From: Hypanus sabinus
Lineage: Eukaryota
Length of the DNA: 64,000 bases
Reading direction: 5' to 3'
Assembly (NCBI RefSeq): GCF_030144855.1
Contig: NC_082713.1
Coordinates: 56,978,001-57,042,000, forward strand
Of the stretch, positions 827 through 28,344 are shown in pieces (position 1 is the first letter of the stretch; every line of letters begins with the position of its first letter). Both the position numbers and the translations under genes were made by a program. The notes beneath the pieces were generated by a model. It saw only the letters and a list, made by a program, of their open reading frames with translations. It was not told the DNA's origin and ran no database searches.

Positions 827-1081
827 TTATAGGCTGTAACGATACATTTTCGGTGTTTCTTTCTCCACTAAGCTTGCTTCAGTAATTGCCACGAGCATTG
901 GAAATTGTTTGGTTGCAGCACGCACTACAAGAGACTTGAGACAAGGAAGAAAACAGCACAGCACAAGCGCACAGCTCAACAATACAATACTGACAGTTAT
1001 TGCTATTTTATTCAGCCATGCTCCCCATCCTCCGAGTCTACTTTCTAACCAGTCAAAGAACTGATGTCCGGACCCTGCATT
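827..1081 (-). pseudogene. env: ERV env remnant: membrane-proximal region, TM helix and cytoplasmic tail
   Basis: FFDWLESRLGGWGAWLNKIAITVSIVLLSCALVLCCFLPCLKSLV: Trp-rich segment, hydrophobic helix and CCxxPC motif typical of fish ERV1 TM; stop at 827-829. Confidence 0.85.
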
Positions 1082-4000
1082 CTGTGCGCATACCTCGCAC
1101 TGTGACAAGACAAAGTCCACTGAAGCATGTAAATAAGGTGACCAAAAACCATCCTTCCTTATTTTCTTTATCACTTCCCCCCTTGCACAATGGTCAATCC
1201 CATGCGCTTCTGAAATCAGAATCGTCAGTAGAGGGGTGGGCGCTACCAACAAACCGTCTTCCATGCTCCATAAGCCTTCCAGGTTCTGCTTGGCCCCCCT
1301 TCGTCTCCACATTGTCTGTTCTGCCAAAGTTGCCTTACCTTGTATTTCAATTAGGTCCTCTACCTCAGGTTCTGGAGTTAGGCTTGCCTGGGGGGCAATG
1401 ACAGCTGACGTACACCCAGACGCTTTTCTGGCTGCCTCGTCCGAAGCTTGATTTCTCTTTGTTATTACATCATTTCCCTTTTTATATGCCTGACATTTTA
1501 CTATAGCCAATGCTTTAGGTTTCAATATGGCTTTTATTAAGTCTAGAATTTGCTGACAATGTTGTATGGGATCTCCATTACTTTTTTAAAAACCTCTCTG
1601 CTTCCACATTGCGAACAAATTGCATACTCCATGAGCATATGCCGAATCAGTATAGATGTCTACTTTCTCCCCTTCCATCATTTCACATGCAGCTGTCAGG
1701 GCTTTGATTTCTGCTAGTTGGGCAGAACACAGTTGGGGACAGGACTCCATCCTAATAATCTTATAGCTCGACTGATCCTGCTGCACTACTGAGAACCCTG
1801 CATGATTTCCATCATAATCCCTGTAACAAGAGCCATCTACGAACAGAACCTTTTTATCTGCATCCTCTAGTGGTTCTGACCGTAAATCTGCTCTCAATTT
1901 GGCAAATGTCATCGTCTTCCCTACACAATCATGGGGTTCTCCTTCATAGCCCAAAGGGACAAAATCGGCTATATTACTGGTAGTGCATCTCTGTATAGTT
2001 ATGTCAGGAAATGTCACTAGCATCTGATACACTGCTATCCTCGCTGGCGTCAGCACAAATTTCCCTCTTTCCAGCAATTCTGCTACTTTGTGGTGTGTGT
2101 ACAGAGTCACAGGATAGCCCAGGGTTACAGATGATGCCTTTTCATATGCAGAGTACAGCGCCGCCAATCCCTGATAAAAGGGTGGATACCCCTAAGCCAC
2201 CTCATCTAGTCTCTTACTGTAGTATGCTATCGGCTGCTTTGCTTTTCCTGTGCCTGTCTCTTGTGTTAGAACCGCTGTGACATAACCCTCCTGTCAGTTG
2301 GATACATACAAATGAAAAACCTTCTCGTAGTCAGGCAAAGCTAATGCTGGTGCTGACTGCAATTCCTGCTTAATAGTATTGAAAGTTATCTCCGCCTCTC
2401 CATTCCACTGTAAGCTGTTCTTCAAATTTGTATGTCCTGCTTCTTTCATTATCTTTCTCAAAGGTGCCACAATCTCAGCATATTCTCCTATCCAATCTGA
2501 GCTGTACCCTGCCATTCCCAAAAACGTCATCATCTGCCCTACAGTCTGGGGTTTTGGGGCCTTACTTATTGCCTCAATCTGATCTGGTGCTATCACCTTC
2601 ACTCCCTTGGATATTACCCTGCCTAAGTATTCCACTTGCTGCGTGCAAAATTGCAGTTTCTTTTTGGATACTTTATGTCCTCCATGCGCCAGCTTCTCTA
2701 ACAGAGTTATAGTGTCCTGATCACACTGTTCCTTGCTGTGGGAGCAAATCAGTAGGTCATCCACATACTGTAACAATGTACTTTCCAATGGTATGCCCTC
2801 TAAGTCTGCCTTCAACACCTGATTAAAAACGTGTGGTGAATGTTTAAACCCTTGCGGCATTCTGGTATAGGTATACTGAGCATCTCTGTAAGTAAATGCA
2901 AACAGATACTGACACTGGTCGGCTAGAGGAATGCTGAAGAAAGCCGAACACAGATCATTCACTGAAAAGTAACTTGCGTCTGGTGGAACAATAGTCAAAA
3001 GCGTGTGTGGGTTGGGGACTACCGCTGGCCAGTCCTCTACCACATCATTTATCGCTCGCAAATCATGCACCAATCTCCACTTGGATTTATCTGCTTTTAA
3101 GATCGGCAGCAACGGTGTATTGCATGGACAGTTTGTTCTTTTAAGCACTCCTATTTCAAGCAAGCCCTGTACTGTCGATGCTATTCCCTCTTCTGCTTCT
3201 GGTCTTAGAGGGTATTGTGGTCTCCTGGGTGGAATTGCTCCCCTTTTCAGCCTTATTTCCACCAGACTAGCTGTTTTTATTTTCCCTCCGTCCGTGTCAT
3301 GCTGTGACCACAGAATAGATGGCTACTCATCTAACCTTCTATCTTTCTGCTGGCTTCTTTCCTTTCCCAGCAATGGCATGTGTGTTTGGGGAGTTATTTC
3401 GACCTCTCTCACTGTCCCTACCATATCTACACTTACCACTATTTTAATGCAATTGTTGTCTTCCGATATCCACACCTCTGGCGTGATTTTCCTCCACACT
3501 GTTACAGTTTCAGCACTCTTAACTAAGGGTCCTAAGTCTTTGGACTGATATCCCTTATTTACCAACAATGTTACGTGGGGAACAGCCTGTATCCTGTACC
3601 ATTTTTCTAAAAAGGTGTTCCACTTAACTTGTAAAGCTGCCCCTTGCTTTCCAATTATCACAGCCTCCCCTTCTAGGTGCTGTTGGGTACATGCCTCCAG
3701 GTGCCATCTCTCCTCTAACTCCCTGTTCTGAGTCTCGTCAAAAATCCCTGTACAATGTAGCTCAGATTTGGGCATTACAGCCCTGGGTAATAAAGCCTGC
3801 ACGCCCTTTTTCCATTTTTCCCAGGTTTCCTGAATCTGATCTGCGATGTCTCCTATCCAAAAGACATTAGCCTTCTTGTCTTCTCGCACTATCAATTGAG
3901 CCCCTGCTCTTTCCACACTCAGCCCATTTCTGGTGCATTCTAATTTTAATTCCAGTTTCAATAAGGCATCTCTGCCTAACAAATTAATCGGAGTTCCTTT

Positions 4001-4287
4001 AAATACTAGCACCGGCAAAACAATTACTTTATTTCCCATTCTCAACCGCACTGGAGCTGTGCACTGTGTCAACTGTGTTTTCCCCGAGAACCCTACCGTC
4101 TTAATAAACTTTCCTGACAAGGGAAGGTGAAGGGCATACTGTGGCTGTACACAAGTGTACGTGGCTCCAGTATCCATCATCATTGGTGTCAGTTGCCCTT
4201 CTAACATAACCTGAACAATGGGTTCCTCGTCTGCCTCCCTTGTTATCATTGGGTAATATCCCTTCCCACTCGAGTTCTCGGGGCACC
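1082..4287 (-). pseudogene. pol: ERV pro-pol (protease, 2H-phosphoesterase-like domain, RT, RNase H, integrase N-terminal zinc finger), disrupted
   Basis: ORF pieces 3323-4249 (MMMDTGATYT, NLLGRD, HCT, HVT), 2294-3262 (NTPLLP, DLRAIN, DLCSAFF, MPQGF, QYVDDLL), 1586-2167 (FVDGS, SAQLAEI, YTDSAY), 1082-1525 (HGIDH...CEVC). Confidence 0.95.
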
Positions 4288-6655
4288 CTAATACCTCGCA
4301 TAGGGATTCACAGGTCCACTTGGGCCTGTGGGGGCTGGTTCTTGGCTAAACTTTAGTTCCCTTCTTATCGGTTCCTGCTGGTGTGTGACAGGCCATGGTG
4401 TAAACGGACAATCTCTTCTCATGTGACCTGGCTGATTACATCCCCAGCACAATCTCTCTACCTCTCTTTCCCCCCATTTCCTCACTGGTCCCCTCTGCCC
4501 ATAGCTCCTCTGTCCCCCTCCTTGGGACTTCCAGTCCTGTCTGGGCTGTTTGAATTTAGTCTGTTCCTGATAGGGCATTTGTGAGAATGCTCCTCCAAAG
4601 ACTTTGATTATTGGCATGGGGTTTTCCGGCCCTTGTCTTACAGTATGATCAGTTCCTCCATATAGTGGTGCTTCATCCAGTTTGATGGCTGTACTTGGAC
4701 CGGTGGTTGCTGGCAGCATCTTTTTGCTTTTCCCTTTTTCCTTCTTTTTGAGTTCTTCGAGCTGCATTTGTATTAACTTTCTTTTGCACCTCTTCCTGCC
4801 AACCTCAGCCAACCTTCATTTGTCTTTCCGGTACTTCTCAACCGCATGGACTACGTGGTCTCTAAATTCTTGTGGGGTCATTGACATCAGCCCAACCACT
4901 TCCTCCAGTTTGGATTTTACTTGCGGAGGCATTGCATCAAAAATGCTATGTCGGAACAGTGTGGTGATAAATAAGCTATTTTCCACCTCTTGCTCAGTCT
5001 CCAGTCTCCACCTTTTCAACTGGTTTTCTACGTAGGTTGCTGGGTTTTCAGTGTCTCCCAGTGGATCCCCCTTTAAGGCTTTGGGGTCCACTTTGGGTGG
5101 ATAAAGCTTCCTGGGGGCCTACCATACCCTCTGCCTCACTCTGTCAAACCCGTCTCCATCAGTTCTCTGGTCGTTCGAGTTTACTATGCCAGCCATTTCC
5201 ATTAGTTCATTAAATTTGGAGGTTCCCATCAACCTTATCAATAGTGCCTTCAAATCTCCCATAGCCAATAATCGTCCCACTGTTTCTTCTTCAAAGGCTC
5301 TAATCCATTTCCCTGCTCCTTCATGTAGATTGGGCGAAGTGTTTTTCAGCCCTTCTAGGTCCTGGGATCCCCAGGGGATGTACTGCACTTGTCCTCATCC
5401 TTTAACTAACAATGGCATCATTCTTCCTCCTTCTTCCCACCTGCCCTGGCTCTCCTCCTCACCTGACTCCCCATCTGTCTCAGGGTATGTCTTTACTGCC
5501 TCCCACACAAATTTTTCCGGGGGTCCTCTTCTTCCCTCGGTCTCCTTGTGGAGTCCTTCCTTTCTGTCCTGATTCAATACTTGGTTGGCCTCTGGAGTAT
5601 TTTTCGCATCTCCTCTGGCAATCCCCTCTCAGTAACTTATCTAGCTCTCTCTCTACTTCCGTACGTCGCTTCCCTACCGCCTCCTTCTGCTCTTCTAGGC
5701 TTCTGCCTCCTACCTCTTCCCCAAAAATTCTCGTATCCTCTCTCTCTCCACTTAACTCTTGCTCCTCCAATGAGTCACCTTCTCTTTCTTCCTGTCCGTG
5801 TCTGTACACCTGTGGCAGGGACTCCTCATGATCCTTACTCGTGCTTGATTCCCTTCTCTCTTGTGTTTCTCCAAGACTCTCATCTCCTATCTTTTTTCCA
5901 CTTCCCCTTGAATGCCTCATCTCTTCCTGCCCTGATGAGCCCCTTTCTTTTCTAGTCTGTTTATTTCTATGGTATAACCGATAATCCTCATACTCCTTTT
6001 CCTCTCCCAAGTACTTCATCCGTTCAATCTCTTCTTTTTCATTTCTCTCTTTGCATGTTCCACCTTTATCCTTTCTGCCTGTATCTCCTTCCATATCACC
6101 ACTTTTTCCTTCTCGTATTGTTTTTTTTCCTTCTTGTATTGTTTTTTTCCTCCTCATTATCCCAAACTTGTACTTCTCCCTGCATGTTTACTGTTCCTGT
6201 CAGCAAGGGGCAATGCTTAAGGGTTCCTTCCTCATTATAGGGAGGGGGCTTTTCTGTTTCTGTCGCATCCGGGTACGGAGCTGAAGCCAGCTTCTCACCA
6301 TACCTTCCTCTCTCTCTAACAGGCTGTTTCTCCAGCACCTTAGTGTCTTCCTCGCTTGTAATCAATATTCTCCCTGTCCTCCTCAGCCTTTCTCCCTCTG
6401 TTCTGAAGAGTTTTAGCACTTCCATTTCTCGTTCTCTTTTTTGCCCTCTTTTCTTAGATTTATCTTTTGGTTTGTAATTTTTAATTAGTGCCTCCATTTC
6501 TTCGCACAAGCTTACATCAAACGTTCCTTCTCTTGGCCATTTTGTGACCAGGTTTTTGGTTCTCTTTTCCCATTTTTCTGAAGTTTTTGTGATCTCATAT
6601 TTATTTACCAGGATTTTTTGCTCAGAATCTCTACTGCCGTTCCTTTACCTGTCAT
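4288..6655 (-). pseudogene. gag: ERV gag, frameshifted and with stops
   Basis: Probable ATG at 6655; KWPREGTF matrix-like motif, KPPPY late domain, capsid-like YIPWGSQDL/GAGKWIRAFEE, CWGCNQPGHMRRDC zinc knuckle, TAG at 4288-4290. Confidence 0.9.
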
Positions 6656-7298
6656 GTTGTTCTCTCTTTTTAAGGTATTCCAGAGATTCACAGTTCGTTT
6701 ACTGGATAATTTTATTTACTCTAATTCTATGCCTAGTCTATCGTCTATCTACCAGCGTTTTAAACTATATATTGGACTGTCCTTGTTTCCTATTCTGTTC
6801 TGCCCGTACAGACCTCTATTCAGAGCTGTATCCACAGAACTTGCTCTTTGCACCTTGTCTATTCAGACCTATATCTCTTAAGGTGGTTTCCACGAGGATT
6901 TTCTCTATTTTCCCTTTCCCTGCCCATTCAGACCTTCGTTTTATATGAAGCGGTATCCATAGAGATTTACCAACACCACGTGGAATTTTTCTTAACTTAA
7001 CTTCTTATTAACTTATTTGTACTTACCCTCACTGCAGTGTTTTTGATCAATCCTCTGAGCCTCCTGTTAACCCCCAATTCTGCTAGATTCTTTGGACTGG
7101 AGAGACCCTTTGCAGTGGTTCCACACTTCTGAGACTCCAAGACCTCCCCAAAACCAACAGAATTCTTAGTCCAAATTGTCGCAAAAAGCGCTTACCTTTT
7201 GTTTGGGTGCGCCCTTTATTCTGTTAGCCTTGTGGGGGTCCCTAGAGGACTAGGAAGCGTCCCCAATCTGCCGTTTCCTTTCCGCGGGTCCCTTTCCG

Positions 7299-7316
7299 GT
7301 CCTGCTGCGGTCGCCA
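7299..7316 (-). promoter_or_regulatory. ERV primer-binding site (tRNA-Ser-like)
   Basis: TGGCGACCGCAGCAGGAC starts after a 4-nt spacer following the LTR end ...CCACGACA. TGG complements the tRNA CCA; the TGGCG...GCAGGA pattern resembles tRNA-Ser 3' ends (tRNA identity is inference). Confidence 0.75.
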
Positions 7317-7320
7317 ATTT

Positions 7321-7470
7321 TGTCGTGGTTTCTCGTGCCCCGCGGGTGACCAGGAGGCTCGGGGGATTCTTCAGGAAGTATTGAACTTTAATTTGCAAAT
7401 CAAAGTTTAACCCTTCTTGAAGAATCTTCTGCATCTCCTGGTCGTTTGTGGGGCAGGAGAAACCACGACA
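7321..7470. repeat. 150-bp imperfect palindrome of LTR R/U5-like sequence occupying the 5' LTR position
   Basis: TGTCGTGGTTTCTC...GAGAAACCACGACA; 58 of 75 positions match the reverse complement without gaps; centre ATTTGCAAAT at 7391-7400. Confidence 0.9.
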
Positions 7471-9505
7471 ATAGCACCGCTTGGCCTCTGAGTTTCTCCG
7501 CATGCCATTTAGCCTGAAGAATGCAGCACAAACTTTCCAACAGCTGATCGACTCTGTACTAAAAGACTTAGATTTTCTTTTCGTTTACCTGGATGATATA
7601 CTTGTCACCAGTACCTCAAAATCCAAACACGTATCACATCCTAGCACACTTTTCAAGCGCTTAAGCCTTCACATCTTGCTTATTAATCCTGCTAAATGCA
7701 GTCTGGGTTGTCAACCATTGACTTTCTCAGTCCTCACATCTCTGCAGTAGTTGTAAACCCCTCCCATGGAAAGTCACTGCAATTATGGATTTCCCACCAT
7801 CCAGCACTACTACAAAAGTACAAGAGTTTTAAGGTATGGTAAATTTCTATCACCGCTTCATTCAGCCGCTGAACTTATTCTCTCCCTGTATAGTGTCCTT
7901 AAAGGCAATGTTCCTAATTGCGTGCCTGACTGAGAGTAGACATGACCAGAGTATTTCATGACACCAAGCGAGCTCGTTCCAACATGACCCTATACCTGCT
8001 CCCCAACACACCTAGAAGCCATTACTACTAACTCTTCCCAGGTTGACTATGCCAGCATGGCAGCCGGCCAAACTACTGACCCAGAGGTCCAGGCTTCCTG
8101 AACAGCAGTCACGGGCCCGTGGATGACTGACGTTAAGCTCAAGGAAGCTGGGGTCTCTCTCCTGAGCAAGGCCTCAGCCGGACGCCCTCAGCCCATAATG
8201 CCCGCAAGATGGAGGCAGACCGCTTTTAACTCCATTCACAGATCTTCGCATCCGGCTGGAAGGCCTTACAGAAACTGTTTGCACTAAAGTTTGCGTGGCA
8301 CGACCTTAGAAAAGACCTGTGTGATTGGAGTGCAGCCAAGTTGAGTGCCAGTGGGCAAAAATTAACTGTCACGTTCAGGTACCACGAGCACCTTATCAGA
8401 TCCCTGTGCAACCTGGATGGTCCTCTTCACCCCTCCTGTGGTTTCACGCATCTCCTTACCATTGTGGACCGTAGCACCGGCTGGCCAAAGGCCATTCCTC
8501 TAGCATTGACGATGGCCGCAGATGTGGCACAGACACATGTTCTGAGGTGTTCGGTTTGGCAACACATCTGATATTTCCTCTGACCGTGGTCCCCAATTCT
8601 TATCAGACCTCGGGGCTGCGATGGCCCACAACCTCGGCGTTAGGCTACATCACACCGTGGTGTATCACCCGCAGTCCAAGGCCTGTGTGAGTAGTTTCAC
8701 AGATCCGTAAAGGCTACTCTGATAAGTTTTGGCATGATCGTCTCCCGTGGGTCCTGCTGGGGCCCAGAACAGCTCTAAAAAAAGATCTGCATAGCTGAGA
8801 TGGTATGCAGGCAGTCATTACGCGCACCAGGTGATTTTGCTCCTGAAGCCACAGCCACCTGGTCAGCAGCATTCTGCCCTCTTCAGAAAATTCAATTCCT
8901 TTGCACCTCTTCCTACCTCCCATCATGGTGTCCTGTTGACCTACAGTCCACCTCGTTCACTTTCATCTGCAATTTCATCTACAATTTCATCAGCACAACA
9001 ACATCTCCATAAGCTCCCTTATGATGGCCCATTCTGCACTTCAGAAAGGAGACAAAAGCCTTTTATCATCGATAGGAGGAGTAAACCTGAATGTATTTTG
9101 GCCCACCAAAAGTTGGAGGGTCCCATTACCACGTCCCTGGTGTCACGTCATGATCAGGAGTGTGTCCACACACCTCCAGAGAGCCGGAGGCGCCTGCTGT
9201 TACTCTAGTCATGGAGCATGGGACCTGAGCTGGGCGGCTCGCCCAAGCTCCAGGGAGGCTCACATTGCCGGCTGTGCTGAATTCTGGGGGTTTCTGTGTA
9301 GAGTAATATAACAGACGCATAATTCACAACCACCCACATTCAGTTGGGGTTCACTTTAAGAGGCTGGTCTGACGTGATGATGTAACAACGTGAAGTTTTA
9401 ACCGCACTTTATGCTCTGTGTTTGGTTGATAATAAAGGGAGTTGATATGGTGTCTCTTAAACTTAAAACGCCTCTGCCATTTTATTTGCGAAAACCTACA
9501 CTGCT
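7471..9505 (+). mobile_element. Degenerate Ty3/Gypsy LTR retrotransposon (RT C-part, integrase, PPT, 3' LTR about 9297-9505)
   Basis: EFLRMPFSLKNAAQTFQQLIDSVLKDLDFLFVYLDDILV (RT); HLLTIVDRSTGWPKAIPL and SDRGPQF (IN); G-rich tract at 9286-9290, then TGTAG..., AATAAA near 9431. Confidence 0.85.
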
Positions 9506-11041: not shown

Positions 11042-11087
11042 ATGCCTCCAAAAGGGAAATCGAAGGCAGCTCCTAAGGGTGGGAAAG
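11042..11087 (+). CDS. PIN4: Parvulin-14 peptidyl-prolyl cis-trans isomerase, coding exon 1
   Basis: MPPKGKSKAAPKGGK(G); GT donor at 11088; phase 1 matches exon 2. Confidence 0.93.
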
Positions 11088-24375: not shown

Positions 24376-25408
24376 AACGGTGGCATAACCCTTTAATTCT
24401 GAAAGCATAACCATGTTAGGTGATTGTTTGGCTTTTCTTTGGGTCAATTCTCACAGCTCAAGACCAACTCTCCAACTGCTTGTCATGAAAGAATATGCAG
24501 AATCAATTGAAATTTGAATTCTTTGTTAATTCTTAAATAGTATGCAGGTCACTGTGAGATAATCATTCCAGTTTAATTTCTGTTAAGTGATGGGTTTTTG
24601 TAGCCTAGTTATTAACGTATTGGAAATCCAGGAGGTAATACAGGATGGACAATAAATATTGGTCTTCTCAGTGAGATCTATGCACCATCTAGGAATAGTA
24701 AGATTATATTTTGTCATATTGGGTGGAATAATTAAAAGGCATTCTAAATCCCTGTAGGAGGTAGCATCAATTACATTGCTGTGGATCTGGAGTCACAGAA
24801 GCTCCACTAGGTAGTAGGAGAGATTACTTTAAGCTTAAAATGAAGCCAGATGGATTTATGTTTCTGGTTAAATTAATTTAATTAAAATGCTGCTCTTAGT
24901 ATGAATCAAATTGAAACTCCTCAAAACTCAGGTGATACTTGAATTTGTACCTCTGAATTGTTAATACATCTGTCTGGATTACAAGTGCAACAATTTAATC
25001 ACTATTCTAACCATCCCACGTTTTGGATATTGCTCCTCTGAATTCTAACTCCAAATAATTTGTGAACAATGGGCTCAGTACCAATTCTTGAGAAATTCCA
25101 ATTCCAATTCCAATTTTTATTTCTTTAACTAAGCATGTTTAACTCCTAATTTCTGAGCAAGAGAGAGGTGACTTAATTGAGAAACCCGAGGCAGACAAGT
25201 GGCAGAGGTGTAGTGGTAGGAAATGAGACTGGTGAGAATTACAGAACAAGGAACCAGGAAAATGTAGAGATTGGGAGAGCAGAGATCATGGAGAGATTTA
25301 AAATCCAAGGAGGGGATTTGTAAAGAGCAAACACGAGGAAATCTGCAGATGCTGGAAATTCAAACAACAACACACACAAGCCAGGCAGCATCTATAGGGA
25401 GAAGCGCT

Positions 25409-25442
25409 ATCAACGTTTCGGGCCGAGACCCTTCGTCAGGAC
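25409..25442 (-). ncRNA. Minimal type I hammerhead ribozyme motif (Penelope-associated)
   Basis: GTC-CTGACGA-A-GGGT(CTCG)GCCC-GAAAC-GTT-GAT: intact CUGANGA and GAAA cores, short stem II, palindromic ACGT stem III, NUH triplet. Confidence 0.75.
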
Positions 25443-27897
25443 TAACCGAAAGGAAAGATAGTAAGAGATTTGAAAGTAGTGGGGGGAGAGGGAAATGCAA
25501 AATGATAGGAGAAGACCGGAGGGGGTGGGATGAAGCTAAGAGCTGGAATGGTGATTGGCGAAAGTTACAGAGCTGGAGAAGGGAAAGGATCATGGGACGG
25601 GAGGCCTCAGGAGAAAGAAAAGAGTTGGTGGGGAAAGCACCAGAAGGAGATGGAGAACAGGCAAACAACTAAATATGTCAGGGATGGGGTAAGAAGGGGA
25701 GGAGGGGCATTAACGGAAGTTAGAGAAGTCAATGTTCATGCCATCAGGTTGGAGGCTACCCAGCCGGTATATAAGCTGTTGTTCCTCCAACCTGAGTTTG
25801 GATTCATTTTGACAATAGAGAAGGCCATGGACAGACATACCAGAATGGGAATGGGACGTGGAATTAAAATGTGTGGCCACTGGGAGATCCTGCTTTTTCT
25901 GGCGGACCGAGCGTAGGTGTTCAGCGAAACGGTCTCCCAGTCAGCGTCAGGTCTCACCAATATATAAAAGGCCACACTGGGAGCACCGGACCCAGTATAT
26001 CACACCAGCCGACTCACAGATGAAGTGTCGCCTCACCTGGAAGGACTGTCTGGGGCCCTGAATGGTGGTGAGGGAGGAAGTGTAAGGGCAGGTGTAGCAC
26101 TTGTTCCGTTTACAAGGATAAGTGCCAGGAGGGAGATCGGTGGGAAGGGATGGGGAGGGACGAGTGGACAAGGGAGTCGCATAGGGAGCGATCTCTGCGA
26201 AAAGCAGAATGGGGGGGGGGGCGGGGAGGGAAAAATGTGTTTGGTAGTGGGATCCCATTGGAGGTGGCGGAAGTTACGGAGAATTATATGTTGGACCTAG
26301 AGGCTGGTGGGGTGGTAGGTGAGGACAAGGGGAACCCTATTCCGAGTGGGGTGGCGGGTGGATGTTGTGAGGGCAGATGTGTGGGAAATGGGAGAGATGC
26401 GTTTTAGAGCAGAGTTGATGGTGGACGAAGGGAAACCCCCTTGTTTAAAAAAAGAAGACATCTCCTTCGTCCTGGAATGAAAAGCCTCATCCTGAGAGCA
26501 GATGCGGTGCAGACGGAGGAATTGTGAGAAGGGGATAGCCTTTTTGCAAGAGACAGGGAGGGAAGAGGAATAGTCCAGGTAGCTGTGAGAGTCTGTAGGC
26601 TTATAGTAGATAGGCCGTCTTCATTAACTTTGCCTCCAACTTTCACCCTGCCCTCAAATTTACCTGGTCCATTTCCGACACCTCCCTCCCCTTTCTTGAT
26701 CCTTCTGTCTCCATCTCTGGAGACGGCCTATCTACTATATGCCTACAGACTCTCACAGCTACCTGGACTATTCCTCTTCCCTCCCTGTCTCTTGCAAAAA
26801 GGCTATCCCCTTCTCACAATTCCTCCGTCTCCGCTGCATCTGCTCTCAGGATGAGGCTTTTCATTCCAGGACGAAGGAGATGTCTTCTTTTTTTAAACAA
26901 GGGGGTTTCCCTTCGTCCACCATCAACTCTGCTCTAAAACGCATCTCTCCCATTTCCCACACATCTGCCCTCACAACATCCACCCGCCACCCCACTCGGA
27001 ATAGGGTTCCCCTTGTCCTCACCTACCACCCCACCAGCCTCTAGGTCCAACATATAATTCTCCGTAACTTCCGCCACCTCCAATGGGATCCCACTACCAA
27101 ACACATTTTTCCCTCCCCGCCCCCCCCCCATTCTGCTTTTCGCAGAGATCGCTCCCTATGCGACTCCCTTGTCCACTCGTCCCTCCCCATCCCTTCCCAC
27201 CTATCTCCCTCCTGGCACTTATCCTTGTAAACGGAACAAGTGCTACACCTGCCCTTACATTTCCTCCCTCATCACCATTCAGGGCCCCAGACAGTCCTTC
27301 CAGGTGAGGCAACACTTCACCTGTGAGTCGGCTGGTGTGGTATACTGCGTTCGGTGCTCCCAGTGTGGCCTTTTATATATTGGTGAGACCCGACGCTGAC
27401 TGGGAGACCGTTTCGCTGAACACCTACGCTCGGTCCGCCAGAAAAGGCAGGATCTCCCAGTGGCCACACATTTTAATTCCACGTCCCATTCCCATTCTGG
27501 TATGTCTATCCATGGCCTCCCCATTGTCAAAATGAATCCAAATTCAGGTTGGAGGAACAACACCTTATATACCGGCTGGGTAGCCTCCAACCTGATGGCA
27601 TGAACATTGACTTCTCTAACTTCTGTTAATGCCCCTCCTCCCCTTCTTACCCCATCCCTGACATATTAAGTTGTTTGCCTGTTCTCCATCTCCCTCTGGT
27701 GCTTCCCCCCCCCCCCTTTTCTTTCTCCTGAGGCCTCCCATCCCATGATCCTTTCCCTTCTCCAGCTCTGTATCACTTTCGCCAAACACCTTTCCAGCTC
27801 TTAGCTTCATCCCACCCCCTCCAGTTTTCTCCTATTATTTTGCATTTCCCCCTCCCCCCACTACTTTCAAATCTCTTACTATCTTTCCTTTCGGTTA

Positions 27898-27931
27898 GTC
27901 CTGATGAAGGGCCTAGGCTCGAAACGTCAAC
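27898..27931 (+). ncRNA. Minimal type I hammerhead ribozyme motif (Penelope-associated)
   Basis: GTC-CTGATGA-A-GGGC(CTAG)GCTC-GAAAC-GTC-AAC; catalytic core intact, stem I weakened. Confidence 0.7.
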
Positions 27932-28344
27932 AGCGCTTCTCCCTATAGATGCTGCCTGGCCTGCTGTGTTCCACCAGCATTTTGTGAGGGGATTTGTAAC
28001 TGGGGTTTCAAGGCTTTAGTTCCTAAAGAGGTTCCCAAGTACAGGTTAAGGAGTGGTAGAGGACAGTATAGTGGCAGTAATTAAGTATACTGAAGATGTG
28101 GGTTTAAGAGCCAGATAATATTTTGCATAAACAGAATAGCTGGTAACACTCTTTAACTCACATCCCAAAAGGAGAGACGAGAGAATTGAGGAAACCTTTT
28201 ATGATGAATATGAGATGCAAAATGGTGATTGAATTTTCTTTTTATTCTAGTAATATCATCAAGAAACTTCAGTCTATCAATTTAGATTAACATAGGATGA
28301 TAGAAATGCCAGTTCTCTGGATACCTAAATATCATTACAGTCAA

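Follow-up and report, generated by a model that had tools for sequence, protein, structure and literature searches.

A 150-bp palindrome at the end of a stingray endogenous retrovirus is probably a scar of two fused, oppositely oriented LTR ends

Introduction

Among the class I endogenous retroviruses (ERVs) of fishes, the coelacanth element CoeERV1-1 has ordinary LTRs of 462 to 475 nt and 4-bp target site duplications (TSDs) (PMC4255032). Repeats in opposite orientation form a second group of relevant systems, since inverted LTR pairs form double-stranded RNA (dsRNA) in mammals (PMC12711578), and inverted repeats are less stable when they are longer, more similar and unspaced (PMC7999016, section 2.1). 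With regard to the LTR end and its RNA, HIV-1 has a polyA hairpin and a long-range U5-AUG duplex (PMC3495914), and ADAR-like A-to-G clusters are reported in the U3 of BLV, in a span of about 70 bp (PMC8025556).

Here, we analyzed 64,000 nt of Hypanus sabinus DNA (the window), in which a preliminary description had noted a palindromic unit at positions 7321 to 7470, in the place of the 5' LTR of a provirus on the minus strand. It had offered two readings, either two related LTRs fused in opposite orientation or an LTR family with a genuine hairpin or long terminal inverted repeats. The provirus resembles CoeERV1-1 and other fish class I ERVs in its gag-pro-pol-env order, its MLV-like reverse transcriptase (RT) and its tRNA primer binding site (PBS), as well as in an excess of LTR ends over interior sequence that is consistent with solo LTRs. 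However, in the window copy an inverted LTR end takes the place of the U3 in the 5' LTR, and a 3' LTR, the integrase core and the larger part of env are missing. The palindrome resembles inverted pairs of Alu or LTR elements, which are sources of dsRNA and Z-RNA, in that opposite copies of one family fold back on each other. It differs from them, as far as they are covered by the consulted parts of PMC7999016 and PMC12711578, in having no spacer and a fusion at an internal motif, in its arms of 75 bp that are 77% alike, and in that its fold is predicted from DNA. In a literature search that left most subscription papers outside, we found no description of a palindromic-LTR ERV family or of a fused U5-U5 scar.

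Results

Geometry and fold of the palindrome

Over their whole length and without a spacer, the two halves of 7321-7470 pair at 58 of 75 positions. The 17 mismatches comprise, on the plus strand, 11 G·T pairs, 3 A·C pairs (G·T on the minus strand) and 3 others, so that our recount was identical to the gapless 75+75 bp pairing, the 17 mismatches and the 11-versus-3 wobble split reported before. The TG...CA ends and the adjacent PBS, 4 nt inside the left end, were also both found as described, and the terminal inverted repeat is perfect over 14 bp. Within the window the palindrome is present in a single copy and ranks first, the next-best zero-loop palindrome pairing at 42/75 positions (background mean 18.8, sd 4.0). 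When folded as RNA (z = -15.4 on the plus and -11.2 on the minus strand) or as DNA (z = -11.1 and -9.8), the 150-mer was more stable than each of 200 shuffles. Three weak Rfam matches were obtained, none at threshold (best 25.4 bits against a gathering score of 60). A comparison of the letters flanking the 150-mer revealed no direct repeat that could be a TSD. Taken on its own, the wobble split is borderline (two-sided p = 0.057); the directionality of the G·T pairs is the sharper signal, the G lying in the left arm in 10 of the 11.

The provirus on the minus strand

The features of the locus are collected in Table 1.

Table 1. Features at and around the palindrome (window coordinates)
Feature	Position	Strand	Basis or remark
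RNase H end and integrase N-terminus running into env transmembrane tail	827..1585	-	tblastn of relative L008
Protease, RT and RNase H remnant, class I (gamma/epsilon-like)	1586..4345	-	3 stops in 673 aligned pol codons
gag remnant with zinc knuckle, stops and frameshifts	4288..6644	-	
Leader segment complementary to U5, candidate long-range duplex	7049..7073	-	1 of 300 shuffles as good
PBS, tRNA-Arg-like	7299..7316	-	13 of 18 letters match by eye the tRNA-Arg PBS quoted in PMC11905727, the first 8 among them
Left arm, U5 end of the provirus's own 5' LTR, rare type	7321..7385	-	4 nt from PBS; low depth in 4/4 runs
Quasi-palindrome within the family LTR, 18/20 self-complementary	7386..7405	+	contigs match rightwards from 7384-7386
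Right arm, putative R/U5 end of a second LTR, common type	7386..7470	+	top depth in 4/4 runs
Gypsy 3' half, begins mid-RT, candidate 3' LTR ~9297-9500	7471..9500	+	

Judged by RT similarity, the provirus is a class I (gamma/epsilon-like) ERV with an MLV-like RT. Among solved relatives, the RT matched the MLV/XMRV type best (E = 1.7e-66), followed by the next group (8e-35) and HIV-2 (4e-19), and fish ERV proteins were the best database matches, one from Hypanus sabinus reaching 79% over 47%. The PBS is followed by the gag-pro-pol-env order of class I ERVs. Two direct-repeat LTRs and a TSD are missing from this truncated copy, which lowers its completeness and not its class. Relative to L008, a fish relative with 60% Pol identity, the integrase core and most of env are deleted near 1080. 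Beyond the env tail we found neither a PPT nor a 3' LTR, and the window holds no second LTR copy. A diverged 3' LTR considered at 400-900 was discarded, as 30 and 204 of 300 shuffles scored equally well. On the minus strand, just after the env stop, a strong polypyrimidine tract with an AG forms a splice-acceptor-like site (~745-770) that hints at a 3' accessory exon. The 3' tail fragment of an element that we take to be a LINE adjoins the truncated 3' end of the provirus (~420-575). No tRNA gene was found in the window.

Together with L007, L008 is one of 2 among 40 candidate stretches in genome contigs, both being fish-type ERVs inside bacterial MAGs and likely host contamination. Neither carries a 5' LTR or a leader, and in L008 a purine tract precedes an LTR-like stretch of more than 470 bp that is free of any long inverted repeat. 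The pol and env ORFs of L008 are near-intact. The viral contigs gave no match to two LTR-end patterns and no Gag or RT relatives. All six matches of a 19-nt LTR-end motif in metagenome contigs were set aside as chance, for they span only 19-34 nt in unrelated contexts.

The right arm is the end of a common, longer LTR

Contigs from 4 of 24 listed runs (X1, X5, X7 and X9, from four organisms) were placed on window positions 7000-7700. In 4/4 runs, depth over the right arm (7408-7455) exceeded that over the left-arm core (7336-7383) by a factor of 35 to 120; summed contig depth does not equal copy number, a limit on all depth ratios given here. The respective depths were 1610/1041 versus 19.5/2.4 in X1, 168k/131k versus 2.2k/6.3k in X5, 98k/54k versus 1.7k/2.6k in X7 and 366k/264k versus 5.4k/8.3k in X9. 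In X1, the run nearest to the window, mean depth at 7360-7383 was just 2.4. Right-arm depth also exceeded leader depth several-fold, which is the pattern expected of LTR ends versus interiors.

Past 7470, the contigs diverge into unlike flanks (31 in X7 and 24 in X9, with agreements of 0.39 and 0.38). Since these flanks are unrelated, 7470 must be a true element end. The right arm ends there exactly at the CA that abuts the Gypsy RT, like an end made by an integrase. A Gypsy-like reading across the right junction had raised a Gypsy origin of the arm end, which was rejected given that 7470 is the terminus in many contigs. Among the matches listed, a common upstream sequence unlike the left arm was present before 7384-7386 in three of the four runs (one contig in X1, one in X5 and eight in X7, the last with an agreement of 0.87). 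This indicates that the right arm and the central 20 bp belong to one longer LTR. The right arm thus terminates an ordinary LTR of high copy number; the palindrome is not the LTR of the family.

On the PBS side, contigs among the matches listed depart from the window at 7339-7341 and continue with right-arm-type letters (2+2 contigs in X1), and one X7 contig joins 7341 to 7449 on opposite strands. The usual U5 of this provirus family is therefore of the right-arm type. One X1 contig is identical to the window over 7443-7700 (0 differences in 258 nt); its LTR-side part measures only 28 letters and falls below the 31-letter rule applied for bridging the Gypsy junction. No contig joining the left to the right arm across the centre was present among the listed contigs of the four runs.

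Contig depth, flanks and upstream sequence all support the earlier proposal of opposite LTRs fused at the central palindrome. The proposed hairpin or long-TIR LTR is not supported: upstream of 7384-7386, other copies run on into sequence that forms no palindrome, the contigs on the PBS side proceed as right-arm type, and the LTR candidate of L008, at more than 470 bp, is ordinary. The expectation that each arm would map to an abundant LTR subfamily of its own held for the right arm and failed for the left one, whose type is rare.

The central 20-bp motif

The quasi-palindrome at 7386-7405 is native to the LTR of the right arm and folds on the minus strand only (-2.8 kcal/mol). Being its own reverse complement at 18/20 positions, it constitutes a short direct repeat between two oppositely oriented LTRs; by the same symmetry, the LTR pair of a single provirus has it as an inverted repeat. 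It may have served as the homology at the junction. As the whole motif matches the plus-oriented LTR, the sequence places the join between the LTR ends probably near 7385-7389. The 75+75 symmetry is consequently real as pairing and partly apparent as an equality of two arms. As for the ATTAAA or ATCAAA that the preliminary description assigned to an R/U5 segment in each arm, the ATTAAA of the left arm may be just the complement of the central motif.

The left arm and its G-for-A excess

The left arm is the U5 of the provirus itself, in a rare sequence type, without the U3 and most of R. It differs from the right arm at 15 of the 44 positions in 7342-7385, and 10 of these carry G for A on the plus strand. 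With the right arm as reference, G replaced A at 10 of 19 A positions, compared to 5 changes at the 25 other positions (p = 0.03). The outer 21 bp of the palindrome contain no A on the plus strand. When both arms are read as U5s in their own sense, 10 T-to-C stand against 2 C-to-T differences (p = 0.039). As to the 14 wobble-type mismatches, one A·C lies inside the native central motif, another A·C is found in the window copy alone, one G·T varies between copies and 10 others oppose a left-arm G to a right-arm T.

The divergence of the arms (23%) far exceeds the decay of the provirus (about 3-4%), as gauged by 11 listed leader differences in 321 bp and by the 3 stops in 673 aligned pol codons. 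At 4% decay, at least 14 changes in 65 bp would arise with P ~2e-7. The leader next to the left arm shows the reverse pattern, with 8 of its 11 listed differences being C-to-T or G-to-A in the window copy. On balance, the left arm probably stems from a rare or older subfamily whose U5 drifted by U/C exchange under pairing with the leader.

The G-for-A excess could also be a one-off hypermutation of the left arm. Reverse transcriptase is known to produce U-to-C hypermutation under skewed dNTP pools. An excess of A-to-G clustered on one strand, as left by ADAR-type editing, is present here (10/19 versus 5/25), but the changes do not fall on the packaged sense strand, being T-to-C in the proviral sense. 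For the avoidance of 5' G neighbours expected of ADAR, the counts were 2/6 versus 8/13 (p = 0.35). The left arm is thereby like the ADAR clusters in the BLV U3 in having a clustered one-strand excess, over some 45 bp of LTR, and unlike them, within the part of PMC8025556 consulted, in that it affects the antisense strand, the U5 and one arm only, with a neighbour bias that is not significant.

Pairing between U5 and the leader

The leader segment at 7049-7073 is predicted to pair with the U5 of both arms in a single register. It matches the left-arm U5 (7344-7368) at 21/25 positions, all of them Watson-Crick, and the right-arm U5 (7423-7447) also at 21/25, by 15 Watson-Crick and 6 G·U pairs, so that G-C in one copy stands where G·U stands in the other; two pairs are broken in the duplex. 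Against the energy background, which gives a modest contrast, the left-arm U5 was equalled or beaten by 1 of 1140 tiles and the best leader tile of the right-arm U5 by 17 of 1140. T positions that face G in the leader are C in the left arm in 5/5 cases, compared to 2/6 of those that face A (p = 0.06). The left arm fits the leader of its own provirus better than the right arm does.

The arrangement is reminiscent of HIV-1 in two respects: close to the LTR end, a hexamer resembling a poly(A) signal is enclosed by a short stem, and a C/U-rich stretch of U5 can pair with a G-rich stretch of the downstream leader. It differs from the HIV-1 case (PMC3495914) in the length of the duplex, which is 25 bp, in the place of the partner segment, some 230 nt beyond the PBS and some 400 nt ahead of the gag region, and in the common hexamer, which is non-canonical. 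As the pairing is predicted from two real copies, the likeness is one of analogy only. If the pairing covaries across real copies, it would be a regulatory RNA structure of cartilaginous-fish retroviruses. The proviral leader also holds a second long stem-loop on the minus strand (~7130-7260), a candidate packaging or dimerisation structure.

Discussion

We are fairly confident that the palindrome arose by fusion of two U5 ends through some host-level route. As for the route, we lean slightly toward a deletion in the host genome that joined two independently inserted LTRs of opposite orientation. In this scenario, an LTR would have inserted on the plus strand into the Gypsy RT with the provirus nearby on the minus strand, U3 facing U3. 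The 20-bp motif near the LTR end would have offered a short direct repeat between the two LTRs, and slippage or microhomology-mediated joining at the motif would have removed both U3s, the spacer and the 5' half of the Gypsy element, which is absent from the window. The product would be U5-motif-U5, and the unlike arms would be accounted for directly. The palindrome probably survived since its arms were already about 23% different, in keeping with the lower stability that section 2.1 of PMC7999016 ascribes to longer, similar, unspaced repeats. We infer all of these junction steps; seen directly are the common right-arm end with its varied flanks, the centre within that LTR and the rare left type. 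Against the deletion, a second event is needed for the missing 3' LTR, and the subfamily of the left arm is assumed rather than seen as separate copies, while the leader of the provirus is near the common type.

The main competitor, which we hold to be unlikely, invokes one plus-oriented provirus in the Gypsy element. Recombination between the quasi-palindromes of its two LTRs would have flipped the interior, creating the U5-U5 junction here and a long, unstable U3-U3 palindrome at the other end, whose later deletion also took away the PPT and the 5' half of the Gypsy element; differences between the arms would stem from non-identical LTRs or from later A-to-G hypermutation of one arm. Such an inversion yields the observed order of inverted interior, PBS, U5, motif, U5 and Gypsy 3' half, and a single deletion then covers the absence of the 3' LTR together with that of the Gypsy half, which the deletion route does not achieve in one step. 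It also suits a leader near the common type, whose U5 is of the right-arm type, and the replacement of A by G at 10/19 positions versus 5/25 other changes (p = 0.03). However, the U5s of one provirus start out identical, so that 23% divergence against about 3-4% decay requires an extra mutational step. Moreover, the right arm has at most one matching A-to-G change, and the neighbour counts (2/6 versus 8/13, p = 0.35) show no significant ADAR bias. A more specific version is rather improbable: a single provirus inverted between its poly(A)-region quasi-palindromes into a perfect U5-U5 hairpin, one arm of which was then A-to-G hypermutated on one DNA strand, in a family whose 25-bp U5:leader duplex is kept by G·U/G-C exchange. 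Were inversion and hypermutation true, the germline would here preserve a trace of adenine deamination, or of hypermutation of strong-stop DNA, that stabilised a palindrome.

There is little probability that two LTR copies were mis-joined at the 20-bp motif during assembly or that a hairpin arm was mis-called. The centre is unspanned among the listed contigs, and the left-arm core of X1 reaches a depth of 2.4 at 7360-7383, as an artefact would predict. On the other hand, the right arm and Gypsy side are matched without a difference over 258 nt, the mismatches are patterned, and the left arm fits the leader of the provirus better than the right arm does. Fold-back read chimeras produce near-identical arms, and those seen here are only 77% alike. 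More improbable still is a genuine 150-bp hairpin or long-TIR LTR family or subfamily, or a MITE-like palindromic element at the PBS. The TG...CA ends, the perfect 14-bp terminal inverted repeat and the very stable fold would suit it, and left-arm depth above zero in X5, X7 and X9 leaves room for a minor copy set. These features are outweighed by the 35-120x depth imbalance, the longer upstream LTR, the right-arm-type U5 at the PBS and the ordinary LTR candidate in L008, and a hairpin LTR would have no room for a U3 promoter. Of the marks of a MITE, terminal inverted repeats are present, whereas there is no TSD and just a single copy in the window, and the unequal depth of the arms argues against a multi-copy unit. 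Equally remote is a fold-back during reverse transcription, in which the minus strong-stop DNA would have folded onto itself at the quasi-palindrome and used its own U5 as a template before the product was integrated. The motif does fold antisense to its LTR (-2.8 kcal/mol) and not in the sense direction, and on the right the unit terminates cleanly in an att-like CA. Nevertheless, self-priming predicts identical arms, not arms that are 77% alike, and a centre in the orientation of the provirus, while the observed centre matches the oppositely oriented LTR; this explanation is already largely refuted.

The 150-mer is thus best likened to an inverted pair of class I ERV LTR copies that became fused, by which it is mostly explained, and it is most likely an inert scar. 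Perfect pairing runs outward from the centre for only 5, 6 and 2 bp, which makes cruciform extrusion at 7321-7470, a potential raised in the preliminary description, unlikely. By analogy with inverted LTR pairs, either strand would form dsRNA if transcribed; both U3 promoters are gone. As best explained, the locus is a one-off scar of two copies of an abundant LTR, of a kind known from inverted repeat pairs, and matters little in itself. It illustrates cleanly that inverted LTRs can fuse by way of a short quasi-palindrome inside them. It also cautions that the resulting scar, given TG...CA ends and a PBS, can be mistaken for a hairpin LTR of a new type. If the left arm were instead a unique hypermutant, it would record a strand-specific A-to-G process written into germline DNA.

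With regard to the surroundings, PIN4 exons lie at about 11042, 20363 and 20821, and the start near 11042 is 3.6 kb from the palindrome, in agreement with the roughly 3.5 kb noted earlier. A GC-rich, promoter-like stretch with splice-donor-like sites was observed at ~130-240, and the ERV and the Gypsy element apparently lie between this stretch and the start of PIN4. Further along, 25377-27963 holds a 2.6-kb inverted repeat with a 94-nt spacer, whose arm identity rises from 92% on the outside to 98-100% near the centre. Its ORF pieces presumably derive from a Penelope-like RT/GIY-YIG element. The repeat could be an assembly fold-back; as it stands, it is a much stronger hairpin or cruciform candidate than 7321-7470.
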